From positions 690,001 through 722,000 of the forward strand of contig JBJLBP010000001.1 in assembly GCA_045568075.1 (NCBI GenBank): a stretch of DNA of 32,000 nucleotides, read 5' to 3'. A program made the translations under genes and the position numbers. Numbering within the stretch: position 1 is the first letter of the stretch; the number at the start of each line of letters is the position of its first letter. The notes under the pieces are model-generated. The model had not been told where the DNA came from and ran no database searches. It saw only the letters and a list, made by a program, of their open reading frames with translations. This DNA comes from Candidatus Thalassarchaeaceae archaeon. Lineage in GTDB: Archaea; Thermoplasmatota; Poseidoniia; Poseidoniales; Thalassarchaeaceae. Shown here in pieces: positions 362 through 32,000 of this stretch.

Positions 362-380
362 TTTAAAAAACAACATATTC

Positions 381-10097: not shown

Positions 10098-10179
10098 GAA
10101 AACTCCTCACGGGCTATGTTGAAAATCGTTGAGGCGTTACGTAATCAGACAAACGGATGAATACGAAGAATCAAGCAAC

Positions 10180-10201: not shown

Positions 10202-10213
10202 ATTCTGTTTCAA

Positions 10214-10369: not shown

Positions 10370-10477
10370 ACAGGCGCGCCGACCTGACTCCCCTTCATAA
10401 TCCATTCCCAACACAAACCGGCCGCTGAACGTCAGGCGTAGTCTGACCAATGGGTTCATACACCCTCCACAGAGCCA

Positions 10478-11833: not shown

Positions 11834-11856
11834 TCGGTATGCAGGTGGGGCAAATC

Positions 11857-12147: not shown

Positions 12148-12165
12148 TAGCGATTCGGTGGCCGA

Positions 12166-12537: not shown

Positions 12538-12582
12538 ATGTGAATCGGGATACGCAATTTTGTTAGAGGCGATTCCTTACGA

Positions 12583-14263: not shown

Positions 14264-14365
14264 CCTCCCTCCAACTCAATTCACTGGGGAGCTTAGTGCT
14301 GAGAGGTCGCCGCAAGGTGACGACCCATGAACCTGAACTGGGTAATGCCAGCGGAGGGAGGAGAA

Positions 14366-15829: not shown

Positions 15830-15832
15830 TTG

Positions 15833-15985
15833 ATGGGCGAGCCCGAGAACCCGACCAATATACCGGCTGAGAATGCCTGCAATATCGGGGCGAAGGTGTT
15901 CATCCCTGGGCTTTGCCCCGAGTGCGGCGCAGAGGTGAAAATCGAGTGGAAGAAATGCGCCGAATGTGAAAATTTGCTTGGATGA
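15833..15985 (+). CDS. Small zinc-ribbon protein (50 aa), below the ORF-track length cutoff
   Basis: My translation is MGEPENPTNIPAENACNIGAKVFIPGLCPECGAEVKIEWKKCAECENLLG, with two CxxC knuckles (CPEC, CAEC). The ATG lies 3 nt after the symporter stop. The 152-aa minus-strand ORF over the same region is a shadow of the symporter. Confidence 0.5.
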   Translation: MGEPENPTNIPAENACNIGAKVFIPGLCPECGAEVKIEWKKCAECENLLG

Positions 15986-16179
15986 CCTCTTTCATGCACT
16001 TTTACTCATTCACTTTTAGCAGATTGTGAATTCTCCTACATCGACTGATTCAAGGGGTAAATCTCCCCCGGACATCTATGAGTTCCGAGCACCCTCTTGT
16101 TGGTCAACCCCATCCTACAAGGCTACATTCGTTGCTCATGCCATGGAAAATTTGGCGCCACAGTTGGTCGCGAAGAGAA

Positions 16180-16893
16180 ATGATGAATGGTTATTGGTTC
16201 CCTTTTGAGATGTTTCTTGTCGGCATGTTTTTCGTGGCTGTTCCTTACTTTGCATCGAATAATATTGCTGCTATTTTTCTCGATACTGTGTGGGATCCTG
16301 AGATTGCCTTCGACAGGCAAATTCCAGTAATTAATTGGATGATAATACCCTATACTGTGTTGTATTTATTTTATCCTGCTACACTAATTCTAACTCCAAA
16401 AAATGACAGAGGTAGGGCAGAACTAATTATCGCTATGCAGGGCTTGATACTCATCACACTTTTCTGTGTCTTTTTCTTCATGGTACTACCTGCTGAGATA
16501 GATCTCAGGGATCAACTCGACACACACTGGATTGACAATTCTCCAAATGCCTTCGAAGAGGCACTTTTCAGTTTCATCCATACTTCAGATAATCCATGGA
16601 ATGCATGGCCGAGTTTACACATCGTCCATTCTTATTTACTCGCTAGAATGATGACTTATTGGGTTCGTAGAGAGTATTCTGAAAATTCTCTAGCCAAGGT
16701 ATTTCTTGCCGCTCTGTGGATTGAATATGCACTATTGTGTATCAGTATACTAACAACCAAGCAACACTATCTGTTCGATCTCTTTACTGGTTTTCTAACC
16801 GCTGTGTTAGCTTGGAAACTGTTTGAGTATGCATTAGGTATTGCAGAGCGCCACTCTCCTAGTAGTATTGCTGAGAGTGCTGATTGGGTCTAA
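16180..16893 (+). CDS. PAP2_3-type (Aur1/Ipt1-like) lipid phosphatase/phosphotransferase membrane protein
   Basis: WPSLHIVHSY and HYLFDLFTG are the C2 and C3 PAP2 motifs in the PSLH/HYxxD form, in a multi-TM protein. The track ORF starts at 16078. I prefer ATG 16180 because composition drops sharply only from about there (16321-16380 is 17/60 GC). Confidence 0.7.
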   Translation: MMNGYWFPFEMFLVGMFFVAVPYFASNNIAAIFLDTVWDPEIAFDRQIPVINWMIIPYTVLYLFYPATLILTPKNDRGRAELIIAMQGLILITLFCVFFFMVLPAEIDLRDQLDTHWIDNSPNAFEEALFSFIHTSDNPWNAWPSLHIVHSYLLARMMTYWVRREYSENSLAKVFLAALWIEYALLCISILTTKQHYLFDLFTGFLTAVLAWKLFEYALGIAERHSPSSIAESADWV

Positions 16894-16918
16894 TCAGTTG
16901 TACACAATATCTACTCGT

Positions 16919-19039
16919 CTACTGGTAAACGATTGGTAGGAAGGCGTTCGCAGCGTCTTCGCAAGCGTTAGCGACATCATCCAGACGTTGCAAAACACGG
17001 TACATATGGACCGCCGCAAGTGGATCATCGCTTCCCTCTCTGAAGACAAATCCTGCGGCGCGACTCTCAACGATATCTGCCTCGTGCTCCGCGAGATTCA
17101 CCTGGTGGATTAAATCGCGTAGTTCGGTGCGTCCAGTCTTGGTGTATCCTGAAAGTGTCAGGTCGCGTAGATGAAGCACGGTGTCCTCGTAAATCGCTGT
17201 AGTCTTCTGCACAGCTTCGGCCATTTCCATTACCATTCCTCGGGCCTTGGCATTATCATATAGCGGCCTGAAAGAGAGTTGCTCTGCAACATTCTGTGCA
17301 TAATCTGCAATCCTGTCTTGCCGGCCGAGCATGTAGAGGAATTCATCTGAATCGATTAGTAACTTCCACTCACGAGCGCTGACTTTTTCTCTCAATGCGT
17401 TCTTGATGTCGTCAGCGTATAATTCTGCATCGATTGTCGCTTGAATTTCAGCGGAAGCATCCTCGCCAGCGGTGGCTTTGCTGACTGCAGTCAGCATGTT
17501 TTCGACGGTTGCTTCAACAGCCTCAGCATGCGTGTGGAACAACTCGAACACAGTAGGTTGTTTTGTTCCATCCCCTCCTACATCAGCTAACGCGTCCTCG
17601 ATTACTATCTCCTCATCTCTAGTGATCCACAGGACATATGCTACCGTGGCAAATGCTATTGGTAATACGACGATTAGATTGATTGCAGTACTTCCCATAG
17701 CGACGTACAGGGTAACTGCTCCGAATCCAGCAGCAGGAAGACTGGCCACCCATGAGGCGAAAATCTTTCCAAAAACTCTGAAATCTACATTTTTGGCTCC
17801 ACCTGCTAGGCCAACTCCAACCACTGCTCCGACTAATGTGTGGGTTGTGGATACTGGGACAGCAAGGAATGGCATTGAGAATACTAGAATTGTAGTAGCC
17901 GCGCCAAATTCAGCGGCGAATCCCCTTGTTGGAGTAATATCAGTAATTTTGTGGCCAATAGTTTCCATAACTCTCCAACCCCATGTTACTACACCTATTG
18001 CTATACCAGCTGAACCAAGCAATATTAGCCAAAGTGGAACGTCTACCTTTCCAGCTAGTTCCCCAGGAGTTGAGGTTAACAATTCGAAGACAGTAGCCAT
18101 GGGTCCGATAGCATTGGATCGATCATTTGCTCCGTGCGCGAATGCTACGTAGGCGGCAGTAATGACTTGTAACCAAACAAATATCTTCTCAACACCGTGG
18201 AATCCTTCTCCTTGGAATTCATAATTCCTGAGGACCCAGTATAGGATTAATGAACCAATAATTCCAATGACTAATGCAACCATAATCGCGTTGAATGGAA
18301 TCCAAGCATTTTCCGCCATTGGATTCCAAACACCATTTTCTTTGACTGGTAGCCAATCATACTTATCTGCGATTATACCTTCTCTTTCAAGTCTAGCAAT
18401 TAGGCCCTTTAGAGCCTTGAATTGTAAAGCAATACCAAGTACAAAAAAGGTTGGAAGTGCCATAAGTGGGGCCATCCACCTACTTCTTTCAATAGGATTT
18501 GGAGCTTCTAAAATCGTAGCACGGACAATGTAGAATGTGAAGAAAGCAAGTAAACCACCCATTAACGGACTTGCCACCCAAGACAAAACAACTTCAGTCA
18601 ACTTTTCCCAATTGATCAGAGAAGCATCATATTGCACTTCGAGAACTAGTCCGATTCCTACAATTCCTCCAATTATTGAGTGTGTAGTAGATACGGGTAA
18701 TCCAAATCTAGTTGCGATTGTAATCCAAACCGCTGCCGCCATCATAGCAGCAATGAATCCGTACATCAGATCATTAGTGAAAGCCGCATTGAAGTAATCC
18801 GCCTCTGTATCAAAGTAGAGTATTCCTTTCCTTACTGTGTCAGTAACGGCATCTCCGGCAAAGAATGCACCCATGAATTCGAAGACTGCAGCAATAACTA
18901 CCGCTTGCTTCAGAGTTAATGCTCTGGAGCCAACAGAAGTCCCCATCGCATTCGCTACATCATTCGCTCCAATGTTCCAAGCCATGTAGGCACAAACGGC
19001 AGTTGCAAGAATCAGGACGACCCACATTATCGGTTCCAT
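16919..19039 (-). CDS. pit: PiT-family inorganic phosphate transporter fused to a C-terminal DUF47 (PhoU_div, Pit accessory protein) domain
   Basis: The N-terminal ~480 aa carry GANDVANAMGTSVG and a second GANDRSNAIGP (the PiT internal repeat) with many TM helices. The C-terminal ~220 aa are soluble and helical, with IDAELYADDIK, DRIADYAQNVAEQL, NLAEHEADIVE and LDDVANACEDAANAF, which is the DUF47 pattern. It is one uninterrupted 706-aa ORF. Confidence 0.9.
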   Translation of the reverse strand: MEPIMWVVLILATAVCAYMAWNIGANDVANAMGTSVGSRALTLKQAVVIAAVFEFMGAFFAGDAVTDTVRKGILYFDTEADYFNAAFTNDLMYGFIAAMMAAAVWITIATRFGLPVSTTHSIIGGIVGIGLVLEVQYDASLINWEKLTEVVLSWVASPLMGGLLAFFTFYIVRATILEAPNPIERSRWMAPLMALPTFFVLGIALQFKALKGLIARLEREGIIADKYDWLPVKENGVWNPMAENAWIPFNAIMVALVIGIIGSLILYWVLRNYEFQGEGFHGVEKIFVWLQVITAAYVAFAHGANDRSNAIGPMATVFELLTSTPGELAGKVDVPLWLILLGSAGIAIGVVTWGWRVMETIGHKITDITPTRGFAAEFGAATTILVFSMPFLAVPVSTTHTLVGAVVGVGLAGGAKNVDFRVFGKIFASWVASLPAAGFGAVTLYVAMGSTAINLIVVLPIAFATVAYVLWITRDEEIVIEDALADVGGDGTKQPTVFELFHTHAEAVEATVENMLTAVSKATAGEDASAEIQATIDAELYADDIKNALREKVSAREWKLLIDSDEFLYMLGRQDRIADYAQNVAEQLSFRPLYDNAKARGMVMEMAEAVQKTTAIYEDTVLHLRDLTLSGYTKTGRTELRDLIHQVNLAEHEADIVESRAAGFVFREGSDDPLAAVHMYRVLQRLDDVANACEDAANAFLPIVYQ

Positions 19040-19124
19040 CTATAGTGTCTCAATAGGTGAGGCATATAGTCATATGATTATATAGAATATATATCTAACT
19101 ATAGAATACGAGTGCTGCTAGCCT
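19040..19124. promoter_or_regulatory. AT-rich divergent promoter region between pit and the AbrB-PhoU regulator, with repeated TATAG/CTATAG elements
   Basis: TATAG occurs at 19041, 19065, 19081 and 19100. CTAACTATAGA at 19095-19105 ends 19 nt before ATG 19125, which is archaeal TATA-box distance for a leaderless or short-leader mRNA. Confidence 0.5.
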
Positions 19125-20213
19125 ATGAAAGGTATATATTTCGCGAGTGGTGCGGCGAGATTCGTGGAAAGGGCCTCGAAGAACAAGTCTGAAGTCAGGA
19201 AACTTCAACTGACAGGTGGTTCAACTTACATTGTCAGTTTACCTAAGAGGTGGGTGATGGAGCACGACTTGGCTGCTAAAGATGAGGTTAGGATTGAATG
19301 GAGGCCTTCCGGTAGTTTACGGGTCAATGCAGAAACTAGTACGGTTCGAAAAAGACGACAAGTGGAAATTGATCTAGAAGAAACCGGTAAGGAGTTTATT
19401 CTAGATCACCTAATTGGTGCTTATCTTTCCGGGGCTCAAAATATTCGAATCACTTCAAAATCTGGAATAGATAGAGAACACAGAAGGGAGCTTCGGAAAT
19501 TCATCCAAACTACACGTGGAATTGAAATCTCTACCGAATCGGATTACAAGATAGAAATGATAACACTTCTTAATCCTGGAGAAATGCCATTACATTCCAG
19601 TATAAACAGAATGTACCTCTTAGTGTCAACCCAGATAAGGGATGTGGTGGAAGTTCTTTCCGGTGGAGATTTAACTATTTTAGAGGATAGTGAGGAGAGG
19701 GAAAAAGAGGTTGATGCATTACGTTTGTTACTTGAAAGACAGGTCGGGCAAATATTGGAATCAGCCACCATCGAAACTAGTTTTGGAACAACCAGATGGG
19801 AAGCGGCCGAATTGTCGAATATTGTCCGGACACTCGAAAGAATAGGTGATCACTGTTACATCCTAAGCAGACTGTGCATTAACCAAGATGTACCCAAGAC
19901 TCTGTCTACAGCAGAATTACCAGTTTCTGTAATTACAGTTTGGCAATCCTCGATTAAGCAACTAATTGCTAATTTACGGAAAAGGAAAGTTAAGGAAATC
20001 CATGACGCCAAATCGAATTTAGAATTAGCCATAATGAATCTGAGGGAATACGAAGATAGCTTATGGGATTTGAAATTACAATCAACTGATGCATTATTTT
20101 TAGATAAACTATCAGAATCTCTGAGGAGAATATTAGCATATACAGTGGACATGGCGGAGATATTAATCAACATACACACACATAGAAATTCAATAGAAGT
20201 AACAATTGAATAG
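19125..20213 (+). CDS. Archaeal phosphate-uptake regulator: N-terminal SpoVT/AbrB DNA-binding domain plus PhoU domains
   Basis: RKLQLTGGSTYIVSLPKRWVMEHDLAAKDEVRIEW is an AbrB-type swapped hairpin. NIVRTLERIGDHCYIL and the paired helical repeats are PhoU-like. Confidence 0.85.
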   Translation: MKGIYFASGAARFVERASKNKSEVRKLQLTGGSTYIVSLPKRWVMEHDLAAKDEVRIEWRPSGSLRVNAETSTVRKRRQVEIDLEETGKEFILDHLIGAYLSGAQNIRITSKSGIDREHRRELRKFIQTTRGIEISTESDYKIEMITLLNPGEMPLHSSINRMYLLVSTQIRDVVEVLSGGDLTILEDSEEREKEVDALRLLLERQVGQILESATIETSFGTTRWEAAELSNIVRTLERIGDHCYILSRLCINQDVPKTLSTAELPVSVITVWQSSIKQLIANLRKRKVKEIHDAKSNLELAIMNLREYEDSLWDLKLQSTDALFLDKLSESLRRILAYTVDMAEILINIHTHRNSIEVTIE

Positions 20214-20259
20214 ACTATTTTGTTGTGTTTTATCGGGGCGAAAATTAACATTTTTTCAC

Positions 20260-20270
20260 CTAACTATAGA
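20260..20270 (+). promoter_or_regulatory. Second copy of the 11-mer CTAACTATAGA, upstream of pstS
   Basis: Identical to 19095-19105. It ends 23 nt before ATG 20294 and 86 nt before the preferred pstS start at 20357. Confidence 0.4.
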
Positions 20271-20356
20271 GATTAGATAGGTTCCCTCCATCTATGTTAA
20301 CTTTACAGATTCATTTCAACATAGCATGCGATGTCGAAGCGAACGGAGAAATACGA

Positions 20357-21340
20357 ATGAACCGAACTCTATTGACGAATATGATGATTGTACTGTTACT
20401 CAGTGCCTCACTGGCCGGGTGTACAGGTGATGACGAAAAAGAAAGCTTGATCCAAACCGGATCCTCGACCGTTTTGCCGCTGGCGGTGGCTTGGGCGGAA
20501 GAATATGAAGGAGCAGATGTATCTGTCTCGGGAGGAGGTTCCAGCCATGGAATCAATGCTTTATTGAATGGGGAAACTGACCTAGGGGATGCTTCGAGAC
20601 TGATGAAAGGTAAGGACTACACAAAAGTAAACTGCGATGAATCAGGGGTTAGATCTGATGGAACTGCTTCTGAAGAATGCATGGGGGTAATGCCAACCAA
20701 GTGGGTCGTTGCTTTTGATGTCTTAGCGGTTATTACCCATCCTTCTAATGACTTTGCAAGCACTCTAACTTACGATCAGTTATACTCAATTTTCACAGAT
20801 GATAACCCAGCTGTTTATTGGGATGATGTGCCTGGATTAGACGGCGCTCCTCACGAAGAAATTGAAATCTACGCACCCGATGAGGCAAGCGGTACTTTTG
20901 ATTACTTTTTCGAAGAGATTATCGAAGATTGGGGTGACGACACCCAAGTCGCAGGGACTCGTCTAGAAGCTGGTGATGGTGTATATCACCCATCAGCGGA
21001 CGATAACGTGATTATGACCGCAATACAATCCAACGAATACGCAATTGGATTCCTAGGGTTCGCCTATGTTAGAGAGAATGCTGACACGATAAATGCGGTA
21101 TCGATAGATGATGGCAGTGGTGCTGTAGAGCCTTCCTTAGAGACGGTTGCAGATTATCCTATGGCTCGTCCACTTCACATATACACCGATGCGAATGCAG
21201 CAAATTCAGATGTTGTGAACGGCTACTTGAGTTTTGCAATGTCTGATGAAGGACAAGCAGTCTGTGACGAAGTAGGATACGTGAAGGTAGAGTTGGTCGA
21301 TGCCAATTTACTTTCACTCCAACGCGCAGCCTTGGCGTGA
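20357..21340 (+). CDS. pstS: Phosphate ABC transporter substrate-binding lipoprotein PstS
   Basis: MNRTLLTNMMIVLLLSASLAGC is a lipobox-type signal. GSSTVLPLAVAWAEEY and VSGGGSSHGINALLNGETDLGDASR match the PstS family. ATG 20357 is preceded by GGAG. The track start at 20294 would add an atypical 21-aa extension. Confidence 0.9.
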   Translation: MNRTLLTNMMIVLLLSASLAGCTGDDEKESLIQTGSSTVLPLAVAWAEEYEGADVSVSGGGSSHGINALLNGETDLGDASRLMKGKDYTKVNCDESGVRSDGTASEECMGVMPTKWVVAFDVLAVITHPSNDFASTLTYDQLYSIFTDDNPAVYWDDVPGLDGAPHEEIEIYAPDEASGTFDYFFEEIIEDWGDDTQVAGTRLEAGDGVYHPSADDNVIMTAIQSNEYAIGFLGFAYVRENADTINAVSIDDGSGAVEPSLETVADYPMARPLHIYTDANAANSDVVNGYLSFAMSDEGQAVCDEVGYVKVELVDANLLSLQRAALA

Positions 21341-21358
21341 ACGATGAAGTGGTAAATC

Positions 21359-23227
21359 ATGAATGAGACTGGCACTTTCCTAGAAGGCCGGGCTCCACGT
21401 AATCGATTTGCCTACAGTGCTTTGTTTTCTGCCGCCTCACTATCGGTGATTGCAAGTGCGCTAATCATATACACACTGGCATCAGGAACAATTCGCTTTT
21501 TTGAATACGAAGAAGCTACCTTCTTGGAATTCATAACTGGAACGGATTGGTTGCCTAATGGACGTAACCCCAGTTTTGGGATCTGGCCTTTACTTTCAGG
21601 TACAGCTCTCATTGCTGTGGGGGCACTAATGATTTCTATCCCCCTTGGAGTGGCTGCCGCTCTTCATCTTGGTGAATTTGCCTCGCCCAAATCACGACGT
21701 TTTCTGAAGCCAATTGTCGAGGTTCTTTCCGGTATTCCATCAGTAGTTCATGGTTTCTTCGCTCTTCTTGTTATTAGTCCATTTATGCAAAGAACCATCG
21801 ATGCAACATACTTCAACGCAGCCAGTGCAATAATTGTCGTGGCAGCAATGATTTTGCCGATTATAGTTTCAATATCAGATGATGCAATTAGAGCAGTTCC
21901 TAGGGAAATAAAGGAAGCAGCATTAGGCCTTGGAGCAACACGTTGGGAAATGGCGACCAAAGTTGTTCTACCGTCTGCTCGTTCTGGAATCGTTGCGGCT
22001 GTATTACTCGCACTCGCACGTGCAGTAGGTGAAACAATGGCTGTAACTATGGCTGCTGGCTCAGTTGCAGCACTGCATTTCGATCCACGTCTAGAAGTAC
22101 AAACTCTAACTGCATATATCGCCCAAGTTGCAACTGGCGATATACCTCCTGGACCAGCAACTGATGCGGGATTCGCGGTAGGCTCAGCTCTCTTTGTCCT
22201 AACATACTCGGTGAACATCTTGGCAATAGGGGCAACAAGGAAGCGACTGGGAGCAAATAAAGGAAAAATGTCTTCTCTATTTTTTGAGATTAAAGCGAAA
22301 TTATCGATGCTCTTAGAGAAACTTAGAGGAGAAGTCAAATATAATTTAACACAATCAAATCCATTTATTCCCACAAAATACGACTTATTTAGAAGAAGAA
22401 AAGAAAAGGTTTCTCGATTTTTTGTTGCAAGTAGTCTATTTGTGGGATTAGCATTTTTACTTATCTTACTGCAAACAATTCTGGAAACAGGACTGGCGGG
22501 TATTGATTTACAGTTTCTGACAAACTTCCCGTCCTACAGAGCTGATCAGGCGGGTATAGGCCCTACAATTTTGGGTTCACTTTGGTTAATCGCACTGACA
22601 ATGTTATTCGCATTGCCAGCGGGTGTTGGGGCTGCAGTTTACTTGACTGAACTTGCTCCCGAAGGTATTCTGAATCAATTTTTGAGGCGAACCATACAGA
22701 ATCTTGCAGCGGTCCCCTCGATTATTTTTGGTTTAGTCGGGTTGTATATCTTCAGCAGAATGTTTGGTTTTGGGCTTAGTTTACTCACAGGTTCTCTAAC
22801 TCTTGCAATGATGGTTTTACCAATGATTGTAGTGACTACAGAACAAGCATTGCTAGCGGTTCCGAAATCGTTTCGAGATGCAGCGTTGGGCGTTGGAGCA
22901 ACTAGGTGGCAGGCAGTCCGGCATCATGTCCTTCCAAATGCGGTTCCAGGAATAGCAACTGGAGCAATTCTTTCCGTCGCAAGAGCACTAGGAGAAACTG
23001 CCCCTATTCTATTCGTTGCAAGCCTATTTTCCAAAACGGCGCCAACAGGAATAATGGATGGATTCCTAGCTTTACCAATTCAGATATTTTTCTGGACTAG
23101 ACATCCAAAGGAAGCTTTTCATGATCTAGCAGCGAGTACTATTCTTGTACTACTGATGCTATTACTTATTTTGAATTTCATTGCTATATTCATTCGCAAT
23201 AGAGCAGAGGCTAGGAGGTCATGGTAA
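21359..23227 (+). CDS. pstCA: Fused phosphate ABC permease PstC-PstA in one 622-aa polypeptide
   Basis: The first half has the EAA loop [29 protein letters not shown] (PstC-like). The second half has [30 protein letters not shown] (PstA-like). The two are joined by a very AT-rich linker at about 22260-22400 with no stop codon. Confidence 0.9.
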
Positions 23228-23991
23228 TGTCGACAGGAAACAATAAGATCAGTGTGAAAGATCTGACAATAAAATATGGAGAAAAAGAAGCTATAATTTC
23301 TGTAAATTTAGATATCGAAGAATCTGGTGTAACCGCATTTATTGGCCCCTCAGGTTGTGGAAAAAGTACCTTACTTCGGGCCTTCAACAGAATGAATGAT
23401 GAGATCCCATCTTGCTCAATGATTGGTGAAATAGATTGGCGAGGAAAGAATTTACTTTCAGATGGAATAGACCCAGTTTTGTTGAGACGGGCAGTATCTA
23501 TGGTTTTCCAGAAACCAAACGTATTCCCCACCTCGATTTACGAAAATGTGGCATTTGGGCTACGCATTCAAGGAATCAAACATAAGTCAAAACTAGATGA
23601 AATAATTGAAGAAAGCCTTCGAGATGCCTTTCTTTGGGATGAAGTAAAAGATCGCTTAGAAGATGACGCCTACTCTCTATCAGGAGGTCAACAACAAAGA
23701 TTGTGTATTGCAAGAGCTTTAGCAAATAAACCATCAATTTTGTTAATGGATGAACCGACATCGGCATTAGATCCAATCGCTACGGCTAAAATTGAAGAAT
23801 TAATTCAAGCACTTCGTGAAAAAGTAACTGTAGTCATCGTAACTCACTCAATGAGTCAAGCAGCAAGAATTTCAGATCAAACTGTATTCTTGTATATGGG
23901 CGAGTTAATTGAGGCGGGTGAAACAAAGAAAATTTTCAGTGAGCCTGAAGAGGAATTGACAGGTCAATACATTACAGGAAGATTTGGGTAG
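23221..23991 (+). CDS. pstB: Phosphate ABC transporter ATPase PstB
   Basis: [36 protein letters not shown] and VTHSM. The ATG overlaps the pstCA stop (ATGGTAA) and is preceded by AGGAGG. Confidence 0.95.
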
Positions 23992-23999
23992 GTGGATAA

Positions 24000-24677
24000 A
24001 TGGCTCCAGTCAGAACAGGATTAGATGAAAGATTAGATCAATTGAGGAATCAATTGGTAGAGGATGCTAATGACTTAATGAGAATTTATTCAGTTGCGGT
24101 TGATTCTCTAATTTCCTTGGACGTCGAAAATGTAAATCAAGTGTTGACAGCAAGATACGAAGCTAGGAAAATTTTCTGGGAAAGAACTGGAGATATTCTT
24201 CTTGTTTTATCACTTAACCAACCGATGATGGGTGACCTTCGGATGATATCCACATTCCTCAGAGGCAGCGATACCATTGAGAGAGGCATGAGGCATGCCA
24301 GAGACATTTCACAAACTTCCTCTTTACTCGCAAATGAGTTAGAGATTGACAAAATACCCCACGATCTTATTGATTTGATTCAAACAATGAATAAATTACT
24401 AATGGATATGATCTCAAATATCTTCGATTCAATAAATTCCAAATCTGGCCTAAATATCGAATATATTTCAGATAAATGGGAAGAAATAGGGAATATTTGG
24501 GAAACTTGTCAAGAAGTTATTTCCGTTACTCCGGGTGCTGAAATCGGTAGTAAAACTGGGAGATTAAATCTCTTTAGAGCAATCTCTAGAATGGAGAGAA
24601 CTGGCTATAACTTTGTTAGATTCGCTGACCATTGGCATCATGCACTCAACAATGAGTGGATTTCAATTGAAAATTAA
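24000..24677 (+). CDS. phoU: Phosphate transport system regulatory protein PhoU
   Basis: 225 aa with two PhoU repeats. NQPMMGDLRMISTFLRGSDTIERGMRHARDI corresponds to the QPxAxDLR...LERIGD motif. It is the last gene of the pst operon. Confidence 0.85.
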   Translation: MAPVRTGLDERLDQLRNQLVEDANDLMRIYSVAVDSLISLDVENVNQVLTARYEARKIFWERTGDILLVLSLNQPMMGDLRMISTFLRGSDTIERGMRHARDISQTSSLLANELEIDKIPHDLIDLIQTMNKLLMDMISNIFDSINSKSGLNIEYISDKWEEIGNIWETCQEVISVTPGAEIGSKTGRLNLFRAISRMERTGYNFVRFADHWHHALNNEWISIEN

Positions 24678-24790
24678 ATCAATGAGGCAACAAGTTCTGG
24701 TTGAGTTAGGTAAACCAACAATCCAATACCAGCAAACATCATCATCCATGCTCCAGTAGCTTTGACTATCCCTGTGGACTTTCTAAGGAG
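24674..24790 (-). pseudogene. 3'-terminal fossil (38 codons plus stop) of a CcdA/DsbD-type gene, a diverged copy of the end of 25316..26782
   Basis: The minus-strand translation LLRKSTGIVKATGAWMMMFAGIGLLVYLTQPELVASLI* aligns with the intact gene's FLRRSTGVVKATGSWMMMFAGIGLLIYLTQPEVVVNLVG* at 29/38 identities by hand. Upstream it is closed by an in-frame TAG. Its stop (24676-24674) overlaps the phoU stop. Confidence 0.8.
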
Positions 24791-24985
24791 GCTCTAACCA
24801 GTGCCGGCCTCCGTCTCCAAGAATTCGAGGCATCATTGTGGGAAGGCGTGAAAGAGACCCAGGAGGCGTTATTCCTCGATAAATTGTCTGAGTCTTTACG
24901 GCGACTTTGCGCCTATTCGGTCGATATGGCGGAGATTCTCCTCAATATCGACGCTCACAGGAATGCTTCTGAAGTGACTATCTAA
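24782..24985 (+). pseudogene. 3'-terminal fossil (67 codons plus stop) of an AbrB-PhoU regulator gene, a diverged copy of the end of 19125..20213
   Basis: The plus-strand translation ...LRLQEFEASLWEGVKETQEALFLDKLSESLRRLCAYSVDMAEILLNIDAHRNASEVTI* aligns with the intact ...MNLREYEDSLWDLKLQSTDALFLDKLSESLRRILAYTVDMAEILINIHTHRNSIEVTIE* at 37/58 identities by hand. It has no start codon or N-terminal domains. Confidence 0.8.
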
Positions 24986-25036
24986 GCACATTTGACAAAG
25001 TACAACCTCAAGTAGTAGTGGCATCGCGGTCGGGCC

Positions 25037-25228
25037 ATGGCACAGGGAACGGTCAAGTGGTTCAATTTCACGAAAGGCTTTGGATTCATAGAACAAGAAG
25101 GGGGGGACGACCTTTTCGTCCACAAGTCTCAGGTCGAGGGTCGCATCGAAGAAGGTGACACCGTCGAGTTCGAGGTTGGCGAGGGCCCAAAGGGACCTAA
25201 CGCAATCAACGTGAAGAAAGTCGAGTGA
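25037..25228 (+). CDS. csp: Cold-shock domain protein (CspA family)
   Basis: [33 protein letters not shown] carries the RNP1 (KGFGFI) and RNP2 (DLFVH) motifs. It is 63 aa. Confidence 0.95.
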
Positions 25229-25315
25229 AACTCGTCTTCACTTTCACATCGGATTTACTCGGGCTTACGCGCGTTTAGCGTAGCCTCTATTTCGTCTCGC
25301 TGGGCTTGATTTTGT

Positions 25316-26782
25316 TTAGCCGACGAGGTTGACTACTACCTCAGGCTGAGTGAGGTAGATGAGTAGGCCGATTCCTGCGAACATCATCATCCAGGATCCG
25401 GTAGCTTTGACGACGCCAGTCGACCGGCGAAGGAATCCAATCATTGCTTGACGACCCATTCCAACGAGTCCAGTCACTATGATCATCAGTAGGGTTACAG
25501 ATAGCATCAGGCCACCGAGGCCTGAGATGAATGCACCTTTCCCAACAACCGTGAGCCAGGCGACGAATGGGAAGACGGCGGCTGCGGTGCAGTCGACCGA
25601 TGCCGCCGAGTAACCGATTCCCCATAGGTACATGTTTCGACGTGGGGTGAAGACCTCGTCAGTCTCCTGAGTTTGATACTTGTCGAGAATTCGTTGCACG
25701 CCGGCGAGTAGGTGACTCGTCCATCCGAGCAACATCAATCCTCCAAGAATAACCAGAATCCAAGCGATGGCGATAGCAACTTTGTGTAACACTCCGCTCA
25801 GGTTGATGACTTCGGATAGCCCGAAGATGATGAATCCGACAATTCCAAAGAAAGTCAATTGCCCAAGGGCTGCGAAGCCCCCTACCTCGAATGAACCAGG
25901 CATCCGACCATTCAATTTCCCAGCCTCTCGTAATTCTTCTTCGCGCATCCCGAGGCTGAGGTAGTAAGTGATGTACGAGGGCAAGACCGGGAAAGCGCAC
26001 GGCGAGAAATAGACCAGAACTCCAAGGAACAGTCCGATGATGAATACACCCATCACCGAGCGGTCAGCCTTCGCAATACCGATACGTAGCCCTTCCGCCT
26101 CGCCCTCGTTTGCCGCCTCGATGGCACCGTCGAATTCCGCCCAGCCATCGAGCGGAGTCCCCGTATTTTCCTTTGCAACGACGAATCCTTCGTGATCGAT
26201 AACCAGTGCTAGCGGAATCGCTTGCGCAGAGTAGTACTCCACCAAGTCCCCGCGCTCTCCTTCCTCAAGTAGAATCACATCGGTTCCACCATTGACGATA
26301 GGCCAAGGCATGTGCTTGTCCGATTCAGGGTCTCCAAAGGTCGAATTGATTGAGTCAAATGATTCGTATCCATACCACGAAGCTAGAGAAATCGCAACCA
26401 CAGGGTAAGGTCCGTCTAGAGCCTCCCATTCTGCTAAATTCTGATCGATATGCTCCTGCACATAATGGCAGTTAGAGCAATCGATTGCCATGAAGTCCAG
26501 TATGACTACGTTGCCTCGCAGACTACTCAACTGAATGTCACCATTTTCGTCAGCAATCGCGTCGTCGATCCCCTCACGATTCATCGAAGGGGCCAACCAA
26601 TCCGGTGCCTCGTTAACATCGTCTGAGGTGCCATAGACAGAGGAGGTTAGACCGAAGAGTGAGAGTGAAGCGTAGCCGATGATGCAGAATAGCACAACGC
26701 CGACTCCGAATGCCTTCCAGGTGTCCGATTCCCGGAGAACATCGAAGTCGAGCCCCGCCACCATAACTCTGCTGAACCTCAT
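25316..26782 (-). CDS. Thiol:disulfide interchange fusion: N-terminal TM anchor, TlpA/ResA-like thioredoxin-fold domain (CSNC), C-terminal CcdA/DsbD transmembrane electron-transfer domain
   Basis: LRGNVVILDFMAIDCSNCHYV and AQAIPLALVIDHEGFVV indicate a redoxin fold. YFSPCAFPVLPSYITYYL and SVDCTAAAVFPFVAWL are the two CcdA Cys/Pro motifs, set within about 6 TM helices. Confidence 0.85.
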   Translation of the reverse strand: MRFSRVMVAGLDFDVLRESDTWKAFGVGVVLFCIIGYASLSLFGLTSSVYGTSDDVNEAPDWLAPSMNREGIDDAIADENGDIQLSSLRGNVVILDFMAIDCSNCHYVQEHIDQNLAEWEALDGPYPVVAISLASWYGYESFDSINSTFGDPESDKHMPWPIVNGGTDVILLEEGERGDLVEYYSAQAIPLALVIDHEGFVVAKENTGTPLDGWAEFDGAIEAANEGEAEGLRIGIAKADRSVMGVFIIGLFLGVLVYFSPCAFPVLPSYITYYLSLGMREEELREAGKLNGRMPGSFEVGGFAALGQLTFFGIVGFIIFGLSEVINLSGVLHKVAIAIAWILVILGGLMLLGWTSHLLAGVQRILDKYQTQETDEVFTPRRNMYLWGIGYSAASVDCTAAAVFPFVAWLTVVGKGAFISGLGGLMLSVTLLMIIVTGLVGMGRQAMIGFLRRSTGVVKATGSWMMMFAGIGLLIYLTQPEVVVNLVG

Positions 26783-26876
26783 CCTGTTTTTGACACCGGC
26801 GGGGCTAGGGGCGTAGTTGAAAGTCGATATGAAGCGTCATCACGGTTAAGTCGGGCCCTCAGGTCGGGCGCTTGCC

Positions 26877-26952
26877 GGGCTCGTGGTCTAGGGGTTATGA
26901 CGTCGCCTTCACATGGCGAAGATCGCCAGTTCAATTCTGGCCGAGCCCACCA
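26877..26952 (+). tRNA. tRNA-Val: tRNA-Val (anticodon CAC) with genomically encoded CCA
   Basis: Hand-folded cloverleaf. The acceptor stem is GGGCTCG/CGAGCCC, the anticodon stem TCGCC/GGCGA, the anticodon loop TTCACAT, the variable region AGATC, and the T arm GCCAG-TTCAATT-CTGGC. The discriminator is A, followed by CCA at 26950-26952. Confidence 0.9.
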
Positions 26953-26981
26953 CCTAGAATTGTTGTAGTGGATAGAATCGA

Positions 26982-27683
26982 TCAAAGCGAGTCAAGAAGG
27001 GAACTTGCTCCAATTCTGAATCGCTTTGAACCAGCATCGATGATTGAAGGGTCTTGGAGATGGACAAGATTGGTCAGGCGGCTAACATCATCGACGGTTC
27101 TGATGCCACCTGAGAGCTTCACACCTCGCCTTTCTCCGAACGCGCGCTCGTGGCGCATCACTTCGTAGGCCAGAATTGATGCGGCATCATCAGAACATGC
27201 GCCACGTTTTCCGGTACATGTTTTGACGAAATCAGCACCAGCTGCCAGAGCCATTCGAGCGGCGGCTCGCATGGGTCTCTCTTCCAGCATAGGAGTCTCG
27301 AGGATGACCTTCAGCACACACTCACCGGCAGCCTCGCGCATTGCGACAAGTCGAGCCAAATCAGCCTCGCTGGGAAAATCCTCGTCTTTACGAGGCTCAA
27401 GCACCACGTCAATCTCATCCACGCCAGCGGACACGGCTGCCGCAACCGCGGTGCGAATTTCACCATCATCAACGCTACCTACTGGAAAACCACCAGCAAC
27501 AACTGCCAACTGAATACCATCATCAAGCAACCCGCGAACGTACGTAGCATGCTCGCTGAAGACACATACTGCTCCAACGCGGTTCGAATTCGCTCGAGCC
27601 ACAAAACCAGCTAACTGCTCTTCGCTCGCACCATGATCTAGCAGAGTGAAATCAAGGCATTCGATGATGTCTTTCGCGTCCAA
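26982..27683 (-). CDS. deoC: Deoxyribose-phosphate aldolase
   Basis: TIM-barrel class I aldolase pattern. DFVKTCTGK holds the Schiff-base Lys, with VKLSGGIRT and IGASS near the C-terminus. Confidence 0.9.
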   Translation of the reverse strand: MDAKDIIECLDFTLLDHGASEEQLAGFVARANSNRVGAVCVFSEHATYVRGLLDDGIQLAVVAGGFPVGSVDDGEIRTAVAAAVSAGVDEIDVVLEPRKDEDFPSEADLARLVAMREAAGECVLKVILETPMLEERPMRAAARMALAAGADFVKTCTGKRGACSDDAASILAYEVMRHERAFGERRGVKLSGGIRTVDDVSRLTNLVHLQDPSIIDAGSKRFRIGASSLLDSL

Positions 27684-27692
27684 GCAGATCCC

Positions 27693-28796
27693 TCAGGAAT
27701 GCCGCTCAGCAAACTCACGCATGAATGCAACGAGCGCCTCGACAGACTCGATAGGGCAGCCATTGTACAGACTCGCACGAATTCCGCCAACCGAGCGGTG
27801 CCCCTTTAGTCCACCAAGTCCAGCCGCAGCAGACTCAGCTAGGAAAACCGACTCAAGCGATTCATCTGCGCAACGCCATGTCACATTCATCACCGAACGA
27901 GCCTCAACTTGTGCGTGAGGAGCCCAGAAATCAGTTCGGTCGAGCTCACCATACAATAGAGCCGCCTTCGCTCGATTTCGTGCTATAGAACCATCCAGGC
28001 CACCATTTTCTTCTAGCCATTTGAATACGCAATCAAGAACGAAGATTCCGAAGGTGTTAGGGGTGTTGAACAACGATCCCTTCGAAGCATGAACTGTGTA
28101 ATCAAGCATGGTAGGTAGTCGACCAGCATCGGAGTTTTCCTGCGCCCGTGCCATAGCCCAAGGAGAGAGGATGACCAGTGTGACTCCAGATGGACCGAGG
28201 TTTTTCTGAGCTCCAGCATAGATCAAATCGTGGGCTGAAACATCAAGAGGAACTCCAGCGATATCCGAAGAAGCATCGAGCACTCGTGGCTTCCCTCCGC
28301 TATCTGGTAAATCGTGATACTGCGTTCCCATCAAGGTGTTGTTTGAGGTGTAATGGACATACAATGAATCTTCACTAACAGCATATTCTCCTGCACTCGG
28401 AACAGAACGGAAACCATTCTCAGAATCGCTCCATATTACGCTTACTCCACCGATTCTCTTCGCCTCCACTACTGCCTTTTTTGACCAGCCACCGGTTTCG
28501 AGGAAGTCTGCTCGCTCACCTGGTTGCATAAGGTTCAGGGCAGTCATGTAGAATTGTGTTGAAGCTCCGCCCTGCAAGAATAGAATTGTGTAGTCTTCAG
28601 GTACCGACAGCACCCTCCTGATTCTCTCCATGGCGCTGTCGACAACCGCTTGGAAAGTGGGGCTTCGGTGGCTGATTTCGCACAGTCCGAAGCCGCTGTT
28701 GTTGAGGTTAGGTAGGGCCGCTTGAACCTCTTCGACGACTGACAGGGGTAGGACTGCTGGCCCGGCACCGAAGTTGTGGATGCGTGATTCACTCAC
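27693..28796 (-). CDS. serC: Phosphoserine aminotransferase
   Basis: HNFGAGPAVLP at the N-terminus, YAGAQKNLGPSGVT (PLP Lys) and GGIRASLYN near the C-terminus. Confidence 0.95.
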   Translation of the reverse strand: MSESRIHNFGAGPAVLPLSVVEEVQAALPNLNNSGFGLCEISHRSPTFQAVVDSAMERIRRVLSVPEDYTILFLQGGASTQFYMTALNLMQPGERADFLETGGWSKKAVVEAKRIGGVSVIWSDSENGFRSVPSAGEYAVSEDSLYVHYTSNNTLMGTQYHDLPDSGGKPRVLDASSDIAGVPLDVSAHDLIYAGAQKNLGPSGVTLVILSPWAMARAQENSDAGRLPTMLDYTVHASKGSLFNTPNTFGIFVLDCVFKWLEENGGLDGSIARNRAKAALLYGELDRTDFWAPHAQVEARSVMNVTWRCADESLESVFLAESAAAGLGGLKGHRSVGGIRASLYNGCPIESVEALVAFMREFAERHS

Positions 28797-28879
28797 GCCC
28801 TTAGGGCGTGGGCGAGAGTCTTTCAGGACTTCTGCGGAACATGGGTTGGATTGAAGCCGGATGCTTCTGCCGTCGGGTC

Positions 28880-29482
28880 GTGCTTCGTATCGGCTTGGTC
28901 ATGCTGCAAGGCGCGCGCCATGTGCATATGGCAGCCCTGCGCGCCGCTGCAAAATCAGTCGATATCGAAATCGAGATCCACGAGTTGCGTAAGGCGAGCG
29001 ACCTCGAAAAAGCCGCACCGCATGCGCTCGTATTTCCAGGAGGCGAATCTACCACGATGCGCCTAACAGGCAACGACCCCGCATCGGGACTGCTCCCAGC
29101 GGTCTTCGAATGGATTCGCTCTGACCCAACCCGCCCAGTTCTCGGAACTTGCGCGGGTGCAATCTTACTCTGCGACCCTCTTGACGGCGGCGCGCCAATA
29201 ATCGCCGCCGAAATCGATCGAAACGCCTTCGGCAGCCAAGCGGATTCCTTCCAAAGCGCTCTCGAATCTGCCCTGCTCAGACGCCAATTCCCTGGCGTCT
29301 TCATCCGAGCGCCCCGCTTCACCAGTCTTGCCCCTCCCGCCGAGCCAGTAGCCATGCTCGGGGAGGAGATTGTGGGTGTGCGTGAGGGTAACCGTTTAGC
29401 CTTGACTTTCCATCCAGAATTATCTGAAGATGCGGGTTTCCATGAATGGCTAATCAAAACTGCAAAAGAGGTGACAGCGTGA
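28880..29482 (+). CDS. pdxT: Pyridoxal 5'-phosphate synthase glutaminase subunit PdxT
   Basis: (M)LRIGLVMLQGA, PGGESTTM, GTCAGAILL (catalytic Cys), RNAFGSQ and FHPEL. I prefer GTG 28880, which restores the conserved first beta-strand. The track start at 28808 adds an unconserved extension. Confidence 0.9.
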   Translation: MLRIGLVMLQGARHVHMAALRAAAKSVDIEIEIHELRKASDLEKAAPHALVFPGGESTTMRLTGNDPASGLLPAVFEWIRSDPTRPVLGTCAGAILLCDPLDGGAPIIAAEIDRNAFGSQADSFQSALESALLRRQFPGVFIRAPRFTSLAPPAEPVAMLGEEIVGVREGNRLALTFHPELSEDAGFHEWLIKTAKEVTA

Positions 29483-30636
29483 CATTTTCTGTGCGTTTAC
29501 CGAGTATACCTGAACTTCCAGAGGCGGCTGATGCCAACGATACCGAGGGCTGTATCCAATGCCAAATGGGCTCGAAACTCGTGCTCTTCATCACTGGTCA
29601 CTGCCACTGGATGTGCGACTACTGTCCCCTCTCTGAAAACCGTCGTGAAATTGACTTCATGTACGCTAACGAACGCCGAGTCGAAATCGGCGATTGGGAT
29701 GCTGTAATCGAAGAGGCACGCGCCATGAATGCGACCGGTGCTGGTATTACAGGAGGAGATCCTGTGATGGCGCGTGATAGGGTTCTGGAGGCTTGTCGGA
29801 TTCTGAAAGCGGAGTTTGGTTCAGGTTTCCACCTGCACATGTATACGAGTATTCCATTCAAGGCCGAATGGGCTGCAGAATTTGCTGAAGCCGGTTTGGA
29901 CGAGATTCGCTTCCATTTCTTAGATTTGAAGTCTGAGAAATATGCCGATACAATGGCTGCTTGTGTCGAATCTGGGATGCTTACCGGCGTCGAAATCCCA
30001 TGTGAGCCTGACAAGTCTCACGAGTTGATGGTGCTGCTAGAGACGCTGCGCGGGATGCCTGTACAATTCCTCAATCTCAACGAGTTGGAGATTACCGTTG
30101 GAAACCACGACAATATGGAAGTTCGCGGATTCAATTTGTCCGATGAGATTACTGCTGGCGCCGCTGGTTCTGCTGAATTAGCCGTGCGCATGCGTGACCG
30201 TGTCACTGCGGCGCAAATTGGTGCTCCTGACCCTGAGGATGGCGTAATCCGCGAGCCTTATCCGTATCATCTGAAGTTCTGTACTGCGACCTACAAGGAT
30301 AGTGGGCAATTGCGTCGCAGATTTTTGCGGCGTGGTGAGCATACGATTGCACCGCATGAGATTTTGACTGAGGACGGGACTCTTGTTTTCGGCGCAATCG
30401 ATTGTGAGCCTGAAGACGCGCCGGATTGGATTGAAGAGATTAACCAAGAGACAGGATTGCCTCGTCGATTCATGCTTTATGATGAGGATAATCGGCGCAT
30501 CGAATTACCACTTTCGATGGCTGAGGAACTGATTGAAGCCATCGATGCACCGATTGCTCTAGTCGAAGTTCATCCGACTCATGAGCGACTCGAAATGACC
30601 GTTGTATATCTCGGAGAAGATAGCGAAGAGCAGTGA
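29479..30636 (+). CDS. Radical SAM domain protein of unknown function (PflA-related, archaeal type)
   Basis: CHWMCDYC is the CX3CX2C cluster motif, and GITGGDP is the SAM-binding GGE-like motif. GTG 29479 overlaps the pdxT stop (GTGA) and follows GAGGTGA. ATG 29446 is the alternative start. Confidence 0.8.
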   Translation: MTFSVRLPSIPELPEAADANDTEGCIQCQMGSKLVLFITGHCHWMCDYCPLSENRREIDFMYANERRVEIGDWDAVIEEARAMNATGAGITGGDPVMARDRVLEACRILKAEFGSGFHLHMYTSIPFKAEWAAEFAEAGLDEIRFHFLDLKSEKYADTMAACVESGMLTGVEIPCEPDKSHELMVLLETLRGMPVQFLNLNELEITVGNHDNMEVRGFNLSDEITAGAAGSAELAVRMRDRVTAAQIGAPDPEDGVIREPYPYHLKFCTATYKDSGQLRRRFLRRGEHTIAPHEILTEDGTLVFGAIDCEPEDAPDWIEEINQETGLPRRFMLYDEDNRRIELPLSMAEELIEAIDAPIALVEVHPTHERLEMTVVYLGEDSEEQ

Positions 30637-30700
30637 GCAAGCGAAACTGAAGACCTCCTCTCTCGACTCCTTCAAGTACTCTCATTGAATATCGCAGGGT

Positions 30701-32000
30701 ATGCCCGTGCAGACTTTCGACGCCGAGGGCAGTGAGGTCGACACTTTCCGTCGTCTTTCCGCCTCACAGTTGGGCGTTTGGCATTCATGCCCGAGGCAGT
30801 GGTATTACAGTTACGAAGAGCGATTGAAGGGACCGATGCCACCACATATCATTCGCGGAAATGCGGCTGAGGAATGCGTTTGCAGAGTACTCAGGGACTC
30901 GCCAGTGCTCATTGCTCCTGACTCCACCGACGTGCTTACCTCACCACTCAACTCCGACGGAGCTCCCGATTGGGAAGATACTGGAAATTGGATGGGTTCG
31001 AGACTACCGGCTAGGTCTGAAGATGATTGGCCGGGCTCGCGCGACGCGCTGATGGAATGGGCCACTGCGCGCGTTGAGGTCCATTTCGATCGATGCTGGG
31101 ATGCTGCCGTCGCGGACTGGCAAGCAACTCGGAACCGCGCTGGTTCGCTCGACGATATCGATGTGGAAGAATGTCGAGCGATGGTCATCGAGGGCATTAG
31201 GATGCACCTCGATGAGGTTGAACGATGTATCGAGGCGAATGGTGGACCGAGCCTTGCCGCTTGGCGGGCGGGCGAGGCTCGTGAAGCGATTCCTGCTCCA
31301 GATGGCTTCCCTCTGACCTGGACAACCCCTCATCCAGCCGCTCGCACGGAAGGTGACGTGACTTGGTTAGAGGCTTGGGAAATCGCCCGACCGTGGTTTG
31401 TTGATCCAGATGCTAAGTCATTCACTCAGACGAGTTGTATCCCAGAAGGATGGTTCCAAGGCGAATACGATTTGGTCTATCGATGGGATGGCTCAATCAA
31501 TATCATCGACATCAAAGCCAGCGTTGGCAAGGGTGATAGATCATACAGTTATATCGCACAACTGCGCCTCTATGCCTGGCTCTGGTGGGAATCTCACGGG
31601 CGCTCTGAACAAGCGACCTCTCTGGCTATTTGGTACCTTGGGACTGGCACAGTCAAGCCGATTGTATTGCCGACCGTCGCCGAGATGGAAGCCTACGAGA
31701 GCGAGCTCGGCGACCTCTATCGATTGCTGCGGGCGGGCAATCCAACAATCGACCAATGCCCGCCTGACCCATCTCCCTACCGTCACTTCGATGCGGGAGG
31801 AATTCCAGCAGATCCACCCATCGATCCCGACCCACAAGCCCGATGCAAGCGCTGTGATTTTCGTGGCTTCTGTCCGAAGGGTGGCCACGACCTCGAACTC
31901 ACCGCAGAGCGTCGTATCGAGCGTCTAGGTCATGCTTGGCCAATTACCCCATTCGCAGAGATTGAACCCCGTGTCAATGCCATCGGTGAAGTCATTGGTC
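30701..32000 (+). CDS. Cas4/RecB-type PD-(D/E)XK nuclease with Fe-S cluster cysteines; N-terminal 433 codons, gene runs off the right edge
   Basis: Absent from the ORF track because it is open-ended. My translation from ATG 30701 has no stop to the window end. Motifs are LSASQLGVWHSCPRQWYY (N-terminal Cys), GEYDLVYR...INIIDIKAS (D...DxK), SYIAQLRLYAWLW (QxxxY) and ARCKRCDFRGFCPK (CxxCx5C). The three listed plus-strand ORFs in this span are in other frames. Confidence 0.75.
   Translation, partial: MPVQTFDAEGSEVDTFRRLSASQLGVWHSCPRQWYYSYEERLKGPMPPHIIRGNAAEECVCRVLRDSPVLIAPDSTDVLTSPLNSDGAPDWEDTGNWMGSRLPARSEDDWPGSRDALMEWATARVEVHFDRCWDAAVADWQATRNRAGSLDDIDVEECRAMVIEGIRMHLDEVERCIEANGGPSLAAWRAGEAREAIPAPDGFPLTWTTPHPAARTEGDVTWLEAWEIARPWFVDPDAKSFTQTSCIPEGWFQGEYDLVYRWDGSINIIDIKASVGKGDRSYSYIAQLRLYAWLWWESHGRSEQATSLAIWYLGTGTVKPIVLPTVAEMEAYESELGDLYRLLRAGNPTIDQCPPDPSPYRHFDAGGIPADPPIDPDPQARCKRCDFRGFCPKGGHDLELTAERRIERLGHAWPITPFAEIEPRVNAIGEVIG

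Follow-up and report, generated by a model that had tools for sequence, protein, structure and literature searches.

How do the broken ends of two different genes come to lie back to back, directly behind a set of phosphate-uptake genes, in an archaeal chromosome? The question is posed by a 32,000-nucleotide stretch of DNA from a Candidatus Thalassarchaeaceae archaeon (assembly GCA_045568075.1, contig JBJLBP010000001.1, positions 690,001 to 722,000), hereafter the window. In it, a pst-phoU cluster is followed by the tail of a gene called here "ccdA-like" (a handle only, taken from a first-pass annotation of this DNA) and by the tail of a gene for an AbrB-PhoU regulator. The first-pass annotation had proposed that a segment comprising pstSCAB-phoU and some 117 nt of a convergent ccdA gene entered from a lower-GC relative. 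In our analysis the tails very probably mark the recent import of a 5.74-kb phosphate-uptake cassette from a lower-GC relative within Marine Group IIb (MGIIb), with the footprint of homology-facilitated illegitimate recombination (HFIR). A donor-type genome, an empty site and the junction itself were all found, as the proposal called for; the low-GC block in which the cassette lies turned out not to be one import.

Contigs with an empty site were obtained from other metagenomes by an exact-sequence look-up of the window's cold-shock protein (csp; 100% identical in the loci L001, L002, L034, L081 and L092-L101). L096 and L100 are 99.46-99.47% identical to window positions 24783-32000, and L092-L095 and L098 are 98.3-98.5% identical to the same segment. 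In all of these, PAP2 and PitPhoU (the handle used here for the PHO4-PhoU_div phosphate transporter gene) are followed, in divergent orientation, by an intact AbrB-PhoU gene (348-359 aa) that leads directly into csp, and there are no pst genes. This is the arrangement that had been predicted for the recipient. In blastn comparisons with L096 and L100, homology ends at about 19040 and restarts at 24783. Thus, 5.74 kb (19040-24782) are present in the window in place of about 0.98 kb made up of resident intergenic DNA and roughly the first 295 codons of AbrB-PhoU.

When one genome per species was scanned with the 488-aa product of the ccdA-like gene, 80 loci were recovered, all from MGIIb/Thalassarchaeaceae, and the window's proteins were mapped onto them. 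Across these loci the stretch between the ccdA-like gene and PitPhoU is a variable slot (Table 1). Three of them, L005, L007 and L011, have the gene order expected of a donor: phoU converges on the ccdA-like gene, with the two stop codons overlapping, and is followed by pstB, pstCA, pstS and AbrB-PhoU, the last divergent from PitPhoU. Their blastn collinearity with the window runs from ~16923 to 24792, the latter point lying 116-119 nt inside their ccdA-like gene, whose product is 84% identical to the window's. The window's intact AbrB-PhoU protein is 89-90% identical to those of L005, L007 and L011 versus about 60% to the resident type. A lower GC content had been anticipated for the donor and was indeed found: locus GC is 0.44-0.45 and the GC of third codon positions (GC3) of the ccdA-like gene 0.39-0.40 in these three loci, while the corresponding values for the window, L001 and L003 are 0.52-0.54 and 0.58-0.63. 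The cassette itself has a GC content of 0.42 in the window and 0.43 in L007.

The right junction was analyzed in a three-way alignment of the empty site (L100: ...GATGCTAAGGAGGCTCTAACC), the donor (L007: ...ACTTTCTAAGGAAGCCAATC) and the window (...ACTTTCTAAGGAGGCTCTAACC). The parental sequences have in common the heptanucleotide CTAAGGA, which occurs in the antisense strand of the donor's ccdA-like gene and in the resident AbrB-PhoU gene; beyond these 7 nt, the alignment of antisense ccdA with AbrB-PhoU revealed no similarity at the join. A further excerpt reads ...CACGATGCTAAGGAGGCTCTAACC... in the resident L100, ...GGACTTTCTAAGGAAGCCAATC... in the donor L007 (antisense of ccdA) and ...GGACTTTCTAAGGAGGCTCTAACC... 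in the window. The alignment bears out an illegitimate joining of the right end inside the resident AbrB-PhoU gene. It also narrows the location of the junction, for which the two abutting stumps had rightly been taken as the landmark, from ~24782-24793 to 24783-24789.

The left boundary was approached by dividing the region into zones according to sliding identity with conspecific, donor-clade and sister loci. The segment 15500-16900, with the low-GC PAP2 gene in it, is species backbone: identity amounts to 94-100% with all conspecifics and, up to about 16800, to 95-99% with L001. Within PitPhoU, the part that encodes the PhoU_div domain (16919-~17522) corresponds to the resident allele (93-100% identity to the conspecific L092, about 82% to L003). 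The part that encodes the PHO4 domain (~17525-19039) corresponds to a donor-clade allele, being 93-95% identical overall (82-100% per 100-nt window) to L004, L007 and L011 and only 67-86% identical to L092. The switch between the two alleles falls at ~17522-17535, and the same chimera is found in the cassette-free L096 and L100 but not in L092-L095. The window and L100 match at about 100% as far as the start codon of PitPhoU and part immediately beyond it: from 19040 on, the window tracks the donors and L100 tracks the resident intergenic sequence. Judging from these identities, the left crossover of the import would lie somewhere within the 1.5-kb tract 17525-19039. Two SNPs in this tract, at 18898 and 18929, are specific to the window.

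In the GC profile of the window, a low-GC block (0.36-0.47) extends from ~16.0 to 24.8 kb between flanks of 0.50-0.57. The import of this entire block in a single event was considered and rejected: the PAP2 stretch (15950-16900) is 94-100% identical in all conspecifics and L001, the 3' third of PitPhoU is resident, and the 5' tract of this gene is common to the cassette-free L096 and L100. The PAP2 region (gene at 16078-16893; GC 0.41) is mostly 93-99% identical to L001 and only 31-65% to L003; it probably goes back to an older replacement event, distinct from the pst import.

These data suggest the following course of events. The recipient's ancestor would have carried PAP2, PitPhoU and, divergent from the latter, AbrB-PhoU, csp and the convergent ccdA-like gene. 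A linear DNA fragment would have been taken up, with the donor order PitPhoU, divergent AbrB-PhoU, pstS, pstCA, pstB, phoU and convergent ccdA-like gene. For its left end, homologous recombination may have taken place in the 1.5 kb at the 5' end of PitPhoU, a tract with 93-95% overall identity between recipient and donor clade; its right end, 116 nt into the donor's ccdA-like gene, would have been joined at CTAAGGA inside the resident AbrB-PhoU. Such an exchange of ~0.98 kb for 5.74 kb would bring in the donor's regulator, the Pst transporter and PhoU, leaving two non-functional stumps back to back. The order of steps would be that the 5' patch in PitPhoU arose in the ancestor that the window shares with L096 and L100, and that the cassette came later, using the patch as an anchor. 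The hallmarks of HFIR are homology at one end, a join at 3-10 bp of microhomology and an insertion coupled to a deletion (PMC3240628). At the present locus, the anchor 17525-19039 lies on the left and unrelated parental sequences meet on the right; the join is at 7 nt of microhomology, and 5.74 kb were inserted for ~0.98 kb deleted. We infer a linear fragment as the substrate, dependence on a recombinase of the RecA family (perhaps RadA), the two-step order and an adaptive gain in phosphate-poor water.

Several points weigh against this reading. The tract 17525-19039 could have arrived together with the cassette, which would then have been lost in L096 and L100. Gene by gene, the segment 19040-24677 is only 87-94% identical to L005, L007 and L011, themselves 96-100% identical to each other, and thus the true donor is not among the genomes sampled. 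To our knowledge, the pathways of DNA uptake and recombination in MGII archaea are not known. HFIR has been demonstrated experimentally only in bacteria (PMC3240628), and typical experimental inserts measure about 1 kb, compared to 5.7 kb here.

The first of these points amounts to a distinct history, in which a single fragment of ~7.3 kb (about 17525-24789) entered an L092-like ancestor and L096 and L100 later lost the cassette, and had the resident AbrB-PhoU restored, by recombination with a cassette-free conspecific. The slot is evidently prone to recombination and L096 and L100 share the window's donor-clade-like 5' tract of PitPhoU; nonetheless, this history is unlikely. The AbrB-PhoU gene of L100 differs from that of L092 by about 2%, as does the surrounding backbone, and so bears no sign of recent restoration. 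The backbone groups the window with L096 and L100 (99.5%) and leaves L092 outside (98.4%), so that acquisition of the patch followed by the cassette needs no loss. Finally, identity to the sampled donors falls abruptly at 19040, from 93-95% to 84-88%. On this comparison, the two-step history, patch first and cassette later, appears the most parsimonious.

Islands of this kind are often borne by integrases, and a tRNA-Val gene lies 1.9 kb to the right. Insertion by a mobile element or a site-specific recombinase is nevertheless very improbable: the cassette ends inside genes and matches the chromosomal synteny of the donor, and the tRNA gene is not at the boundary. Pfam searches with all cassette genes returned phosphate-related functions only, with no integrase or transposase among them, and a search of the cassette ends for flanking repeats, whether direct, inverted, att-like or terminal, came up empty. 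Rfam families had no match around 24.4-25.4 kb, where promoter and terminator motifs gave nothing relevant above shuffle expectation.

Contigs of metagenome-assembled genomes from mixed MGII populations can be chimeric, and the composition changes sharply at the junction, as it would if two co-occurring MGIIb populations had been misjoined at about 24.79 kb. An exact look-up of the window's PhoU protein identified ten contigs (L082-L091) from several projects and assemblers, to which the csp look-up added L097 and L099. As L099 is the same contig as L085, these 12 loci represent 11 distinct contigs besides the window. All 11 have the identical join, and over the 11.7-15 kb that span it they align collinearly to the window at 99.83-99.98% identity. 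Moreover, the overlap between the parents at the join is only 7 nt long, much shorter than the k-mers that assemblers use. A misjoin, which the first-pass annotation had named as a possible refutation, thus retains hardly any probability.

The only variants among the window-type contigs between 24660 and 25000 are a single-nucleotide polymorphism (SNP) at 24808, at which these contigs differ among themselves, and, in the ccdA' stump of L088 and L090, the loss of 1 nt at 24728. The frameshift fits an unconstrained pseudogene. In the same two contigs (L088, 6683-6985; L090, 5981-6283; window ~24682-24985), the deletion causes a spurious 100-aa open reading frame (ORF) to be called across both stumps. 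More generally, short ORFs annotated at 24.7-25.0 kb are to be read as pseudogene stumps.

The sequences of the stumps point to two different parents. The minus-strand translation of 24674-24790 is LLRKSTGIVKATGAWMMMFAGIGLLVYLTQPELVASLI, followed by a stop; it shares 29/38 residues with the C-terminal end of the window's own ccdA-like protein, as previously noted (BLASTP E 4e-20). The plus-strand translation of 24782-24985, SKEALTSAGLRLQEFEASLWEGVKETQEALFLDKLSESLRRLCAYSVDMAEILLNIDAHRNASEVTI and a stop, has 40/67 residues in common with the C-terminal part of the intact AbrB-PhoU (BLASTP E 6e-24); the 37/58 reported earlier refers to a shorter span. At the nucleotide level these in-window pairs share about 74% identity (over 84 nt) and about 52% (over the whole tail alignment; roughly 70% in the conserved 3' part), respectively, and because of these low values neither stump can be a recent internal duplicate, in agreement with the original assessment. 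In contrast, the ccdA' stump is 91-96% identical to the 3' ends of the ccdA-like genes of L005, L007 and L011. Its stop codon (24674-24676, minus strand) overlaps that of phoU (24675-24677), an overlap already remarked upon and conserved in the same three loci. Between the AbrB-PhoU' stump and the 3' end of the intact gene in L100, L096 and L092, the SNP at 24808 is the sole difference. In translation the stump is 83.6% identical to the product of L003, where the gene is intact, compared with no more than 60-61% for the donor-type copies. One SNP relative to the conspecific gene and low identity to the donor type identify this stump as the tail of the resident gene, and a very young one. The tails had been described as fossils: they are indeed gene remnants, but the age that the word implies does not hold. 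The crossed composition described for the two remnants fits these origins, the ccdA' stump belonging with the clade whose locus GC is 0.44-0.45 and the AbrB-PhoU' stump with the backbone of 0.52-0.54. Each stump does have an intact paralogue within 5 kb. Decay of duplicates made within this genome can still be given next to no credence, since ccdA' is far closer to another clade's gene than to the window's own, and AbrB-PhoU' is 99.5% identical to the conspecific gene, compared to ~70% in the 3' part (60% for the protein) for the donor-type copies, the window's included.

In the sister loci L001, L002 and L101 (about 93% backbone identity), too, all that precedes csp of the AbrB-PhoU gene is its tail. 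This tail begins some 47 nt closer to the 3' end than in the window, the resident intergenic region between PitPhoU and AbrB-PhoU is retained, and the break lies between two CATT repeats. On this evidence the tail results from an independent internal deletion of ~945 nt, by which the regulator was lost separately, and it was rejected as a copy of the scar in the window. The sister tail is decaying: in L001 it has acquired an in-frame TAG and in L002 it has lost 1 nt. The PitPhoU of the three loci is yet another allele, 82% identical to that of the L017-L021 clade. A search of L001 for a small ccdA' remnant from an L017-like donor found none. With these loci accounted for by a different event, devoid of ccdA' remnant and cassette, and with nearer strains (98.4-99.5%) keeping AbrB-PhoU intact, an old lineage-wide rearrangement whose fossils are common to related species is barely conceivable.

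In the JGI metagenome collection, a 30-mer spanning the junction has a single match, contig L081 (Ga0114933_10004061, 1-13938). Aligned to window positions 26333-24673, L081 has an identical junction, 3 mismatches in 1541 nt of backbone (99.8%) and 5 in the 117-nt stump. Past the stop codon of the stump, it continues with a hairpin and then a different phosphate cassette, comprising genes for a choice-of-anchor I protein, CYTH, two thymidylate-kinase-like proteins, PhoU, PstB, PstA (1195 aa) and PstC (774 aa). Homologue searches and context look-ups located cassettes of this type in the donor-clade genomes L102 and L104, where they adjoin a full-length ccdA-like gene; as far as the junction, L081 and L102 share 99.2% identity. 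The two parents of L081 are identical to each other only over 34 nt (24756-24789), and a search for an independent contig of the same type found none. L081 is either a genuine second exchange anchored on the stump or a misassembly across the 34-mer. It is possible, if rather doubtful, that the ccdA' stump serves as a portable homology anchor with which the lineage swaps whole phosphate-acquisition cassettes. If L081 is real, imported remnants would seed later homologous exchange, and what began as a single event would become, in an archaeal population, a modular slot.

The features of the locus are listed in Table 1. Besides those of the pst and phoU products, the Pfam matches in the window comprise SSS, PAP2, PHO4 with PhoU_div, AbrB-like with PhoU, and the cold-shock protein. 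The cassette itself has the composition of a PstSCAB-PhoU system (PBP_like_2, two fused BPD_transp_1 domains, ABC_tran and PhoU) and is predicted to encode high-affinity phosphate uptake.

Table 1. Features of the locus and contents of the variable slot (window positions unless another contig is named).
Feature	Position or loci	Strand	Remarks
PitPhoU, PitA-like phosphate transporter, chimeric gene	16919..19039	-	Pfam PHO4 1e-111 and C-terminal PhoU_div 3e-15
Homologous anchor tract	17525..19039		donor-clade-like; already in cassette-free L096/L100
DNA absent from conspecific empty-site strains	19040..24782	+	5.74 kb, GC about 0.42
Donor-type AbrB(SpoVT)-PhoU regulator, intact	19125..20213	+	Pfam MazE_antitoxin/AbrB-like and PhoU
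pstS, phosphate-binding protein	20294..21340	+	Pfam PBP_like_2 3e-28; 95-96% aa identity to donor clade
Fused pstC-pstA permease	21359..23227	+	two BPD_transp_1 domains; 95% aa identity to donor clade
pstB ATPase	23221..23991	+	Pfam ABC_tran 1e-30; 96-97% aa identity to donor clade
phoU	24000..24677	+	Pfam PhoU, weak TIGR02135 match; 94-96% aa identity to donor clade
ccdA' stump, remnant of donor ccdA-like gene (last 38 codons and stop), pseudogene	24674..24789	-	
Illegitimate junction, 7-nt microhomology CTAAGGA	24783..24789		from the alignment of L007 (donor), L100 (empty site) and the window
AbrB-PhoU' stump, remnant of resident gene (last ~66 codons and stop)	24790..24985	+	upstream of csp
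csp, cold-shock domain protein, resident backbone	25037..25228	+	Pfam CSD 1e-21
488-aa membrane protein ("ccdA-like"), intact, resident	25316..26782	-	98% aa identity to L001/L002
tRNA-Val	26877-26952		1.9 kb to the right, away from cassette ends
AbrB-PhoU tail in sister loci	L001 11798-12016; L002 6978-7195; L101 7731-7949		window-equivalent ~24836-24985
Slot content: nothing	L016-L023		
Slot content: csp only	L014/L015		
Slot content: csp and AbrB-PhoU	L003		
Slot content: second AbrB-PhoU type	L004, L008-L010, L012, L013		
Slot content: phoU-pstB-pstCA-pstS-AbrB-PhoU	L005, L007, L011		
Slot content: other pst-type cassettes	L035-L040, L065		

The label TlpA-CcdA, initially given to the gene at 25316..26782, could not be upheld: its product matches no Pfam or NCBIfam family at E<=0.001. 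Among the profiles of these collections, no significant match was obtained for DsbD/CcdA and thioredoxin-like domains, the best hit being AhpC-TSA at E 0.0074, below its cut-off. The 488-aa protein is conserved across MGIIb, yet unclassified in both collections. Between the sodium:solute symporter (SSS) and PAP2 genes, positions 15830-15985 (plus strand) contain a 51-aa zinc-ribbon ORF, which is called consistently in the conspecific contigs (50 aa, weak Zn_ribbon_3 match). In the SSS gene (L100 ~2000-3600; window ~14300-15800), L100 and L092 differ by 65-72 mismatches per 400 nt in strains otherwise 98-99% identical; these tracts look like further recombination mosaics.

The net effect of the exchange would be the gain of a PstS-PstCA-PstB importer and PhoU, with the resident AbrB-PhoU regulator replaced by the donor's (60% identical) and the resident PHO4 transporter, of low-affinity type, kept as a chimera. 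Those window-type contigs (among L082-L091, L097 and L099) whose origin is traceable come from the Mediterranean projects PRJNA257723 and PRJEB26919, the latter of which we take to be the northwestern Mediterranean SOLA/SOMLIT coastal series. The Mediterranean is described as phosphate-limited (PMC12379486), and the provenance of these contigs hints that the cassette may have adaptive value in phosphate-poor water. Within the donor clade, the pst cassette (e.g. L007 11446-16996) is 96-100% identical among three GTDB species representatives (about 100% between L005 and L007), which suggests that it also moves there.

Gene flow between uncultured marine archaea can rarely be seen in such completeness, with a donor-type genome, the recombined locus and its unmodified counterpart in conspecifics all sampled. 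The locus indicates that MGIIb archaea gain nutrient-uptake modules of several genes from relatives with only about 70% identity in the flanking backbone, by a route that matches bacterial HFIR. A search of the literature on MGII pst genomic islands found no description of this locus. Phosphate-related islands occur in Prochlorococcus and SAR11. In the marine bacterial clade HIMB59, phosphate-related flexible genomic islands have been described (PMC10734472). As in those bacteria, pst genes, phoU, regulators and putative phosphatases occupy a hypervariable slot that is flanked by conserved genes and whose content differs among close relatives. Unlike in the bacterial cases, the host is an archaeon of MGIIb, and the joints, a donor-type genome and the empty site are resolved to the nucleotide.

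A second parallel is provided by the effector modules of the Vibrio cholerae type VI secretion system, in which sequential displacement leaves orphan gene remnants and HFIR has been discussed as a possible route (PMC5361080). There as here, an incoming module replaces the resident one and strands 3' remnants beside itself. The V. cholerae modules serve toxin and immunity functions rather than nutrient uptake, and their immunity remnants can stay functional, whereas the remnants described here are pseudogenes. The process itself has its counterpart in HFIR, known from Streptococcus pneumoniae, Acinetobacter baylyi, Pseudomonas stutzeri and E. coli conjugation (PMC3240628), with which the locus shares the one-sided anchor, the microhomology join and the coupling of insertion to deletion, all without mobile-element machinery. 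It departs from the described cases in being a natural footprint in an uncultured archaeon and in the size of its insert (5.7 kb rather than about 1 kb). The locus is thus a well-resolved natural example of a known recombination process, and not a new kind of element.

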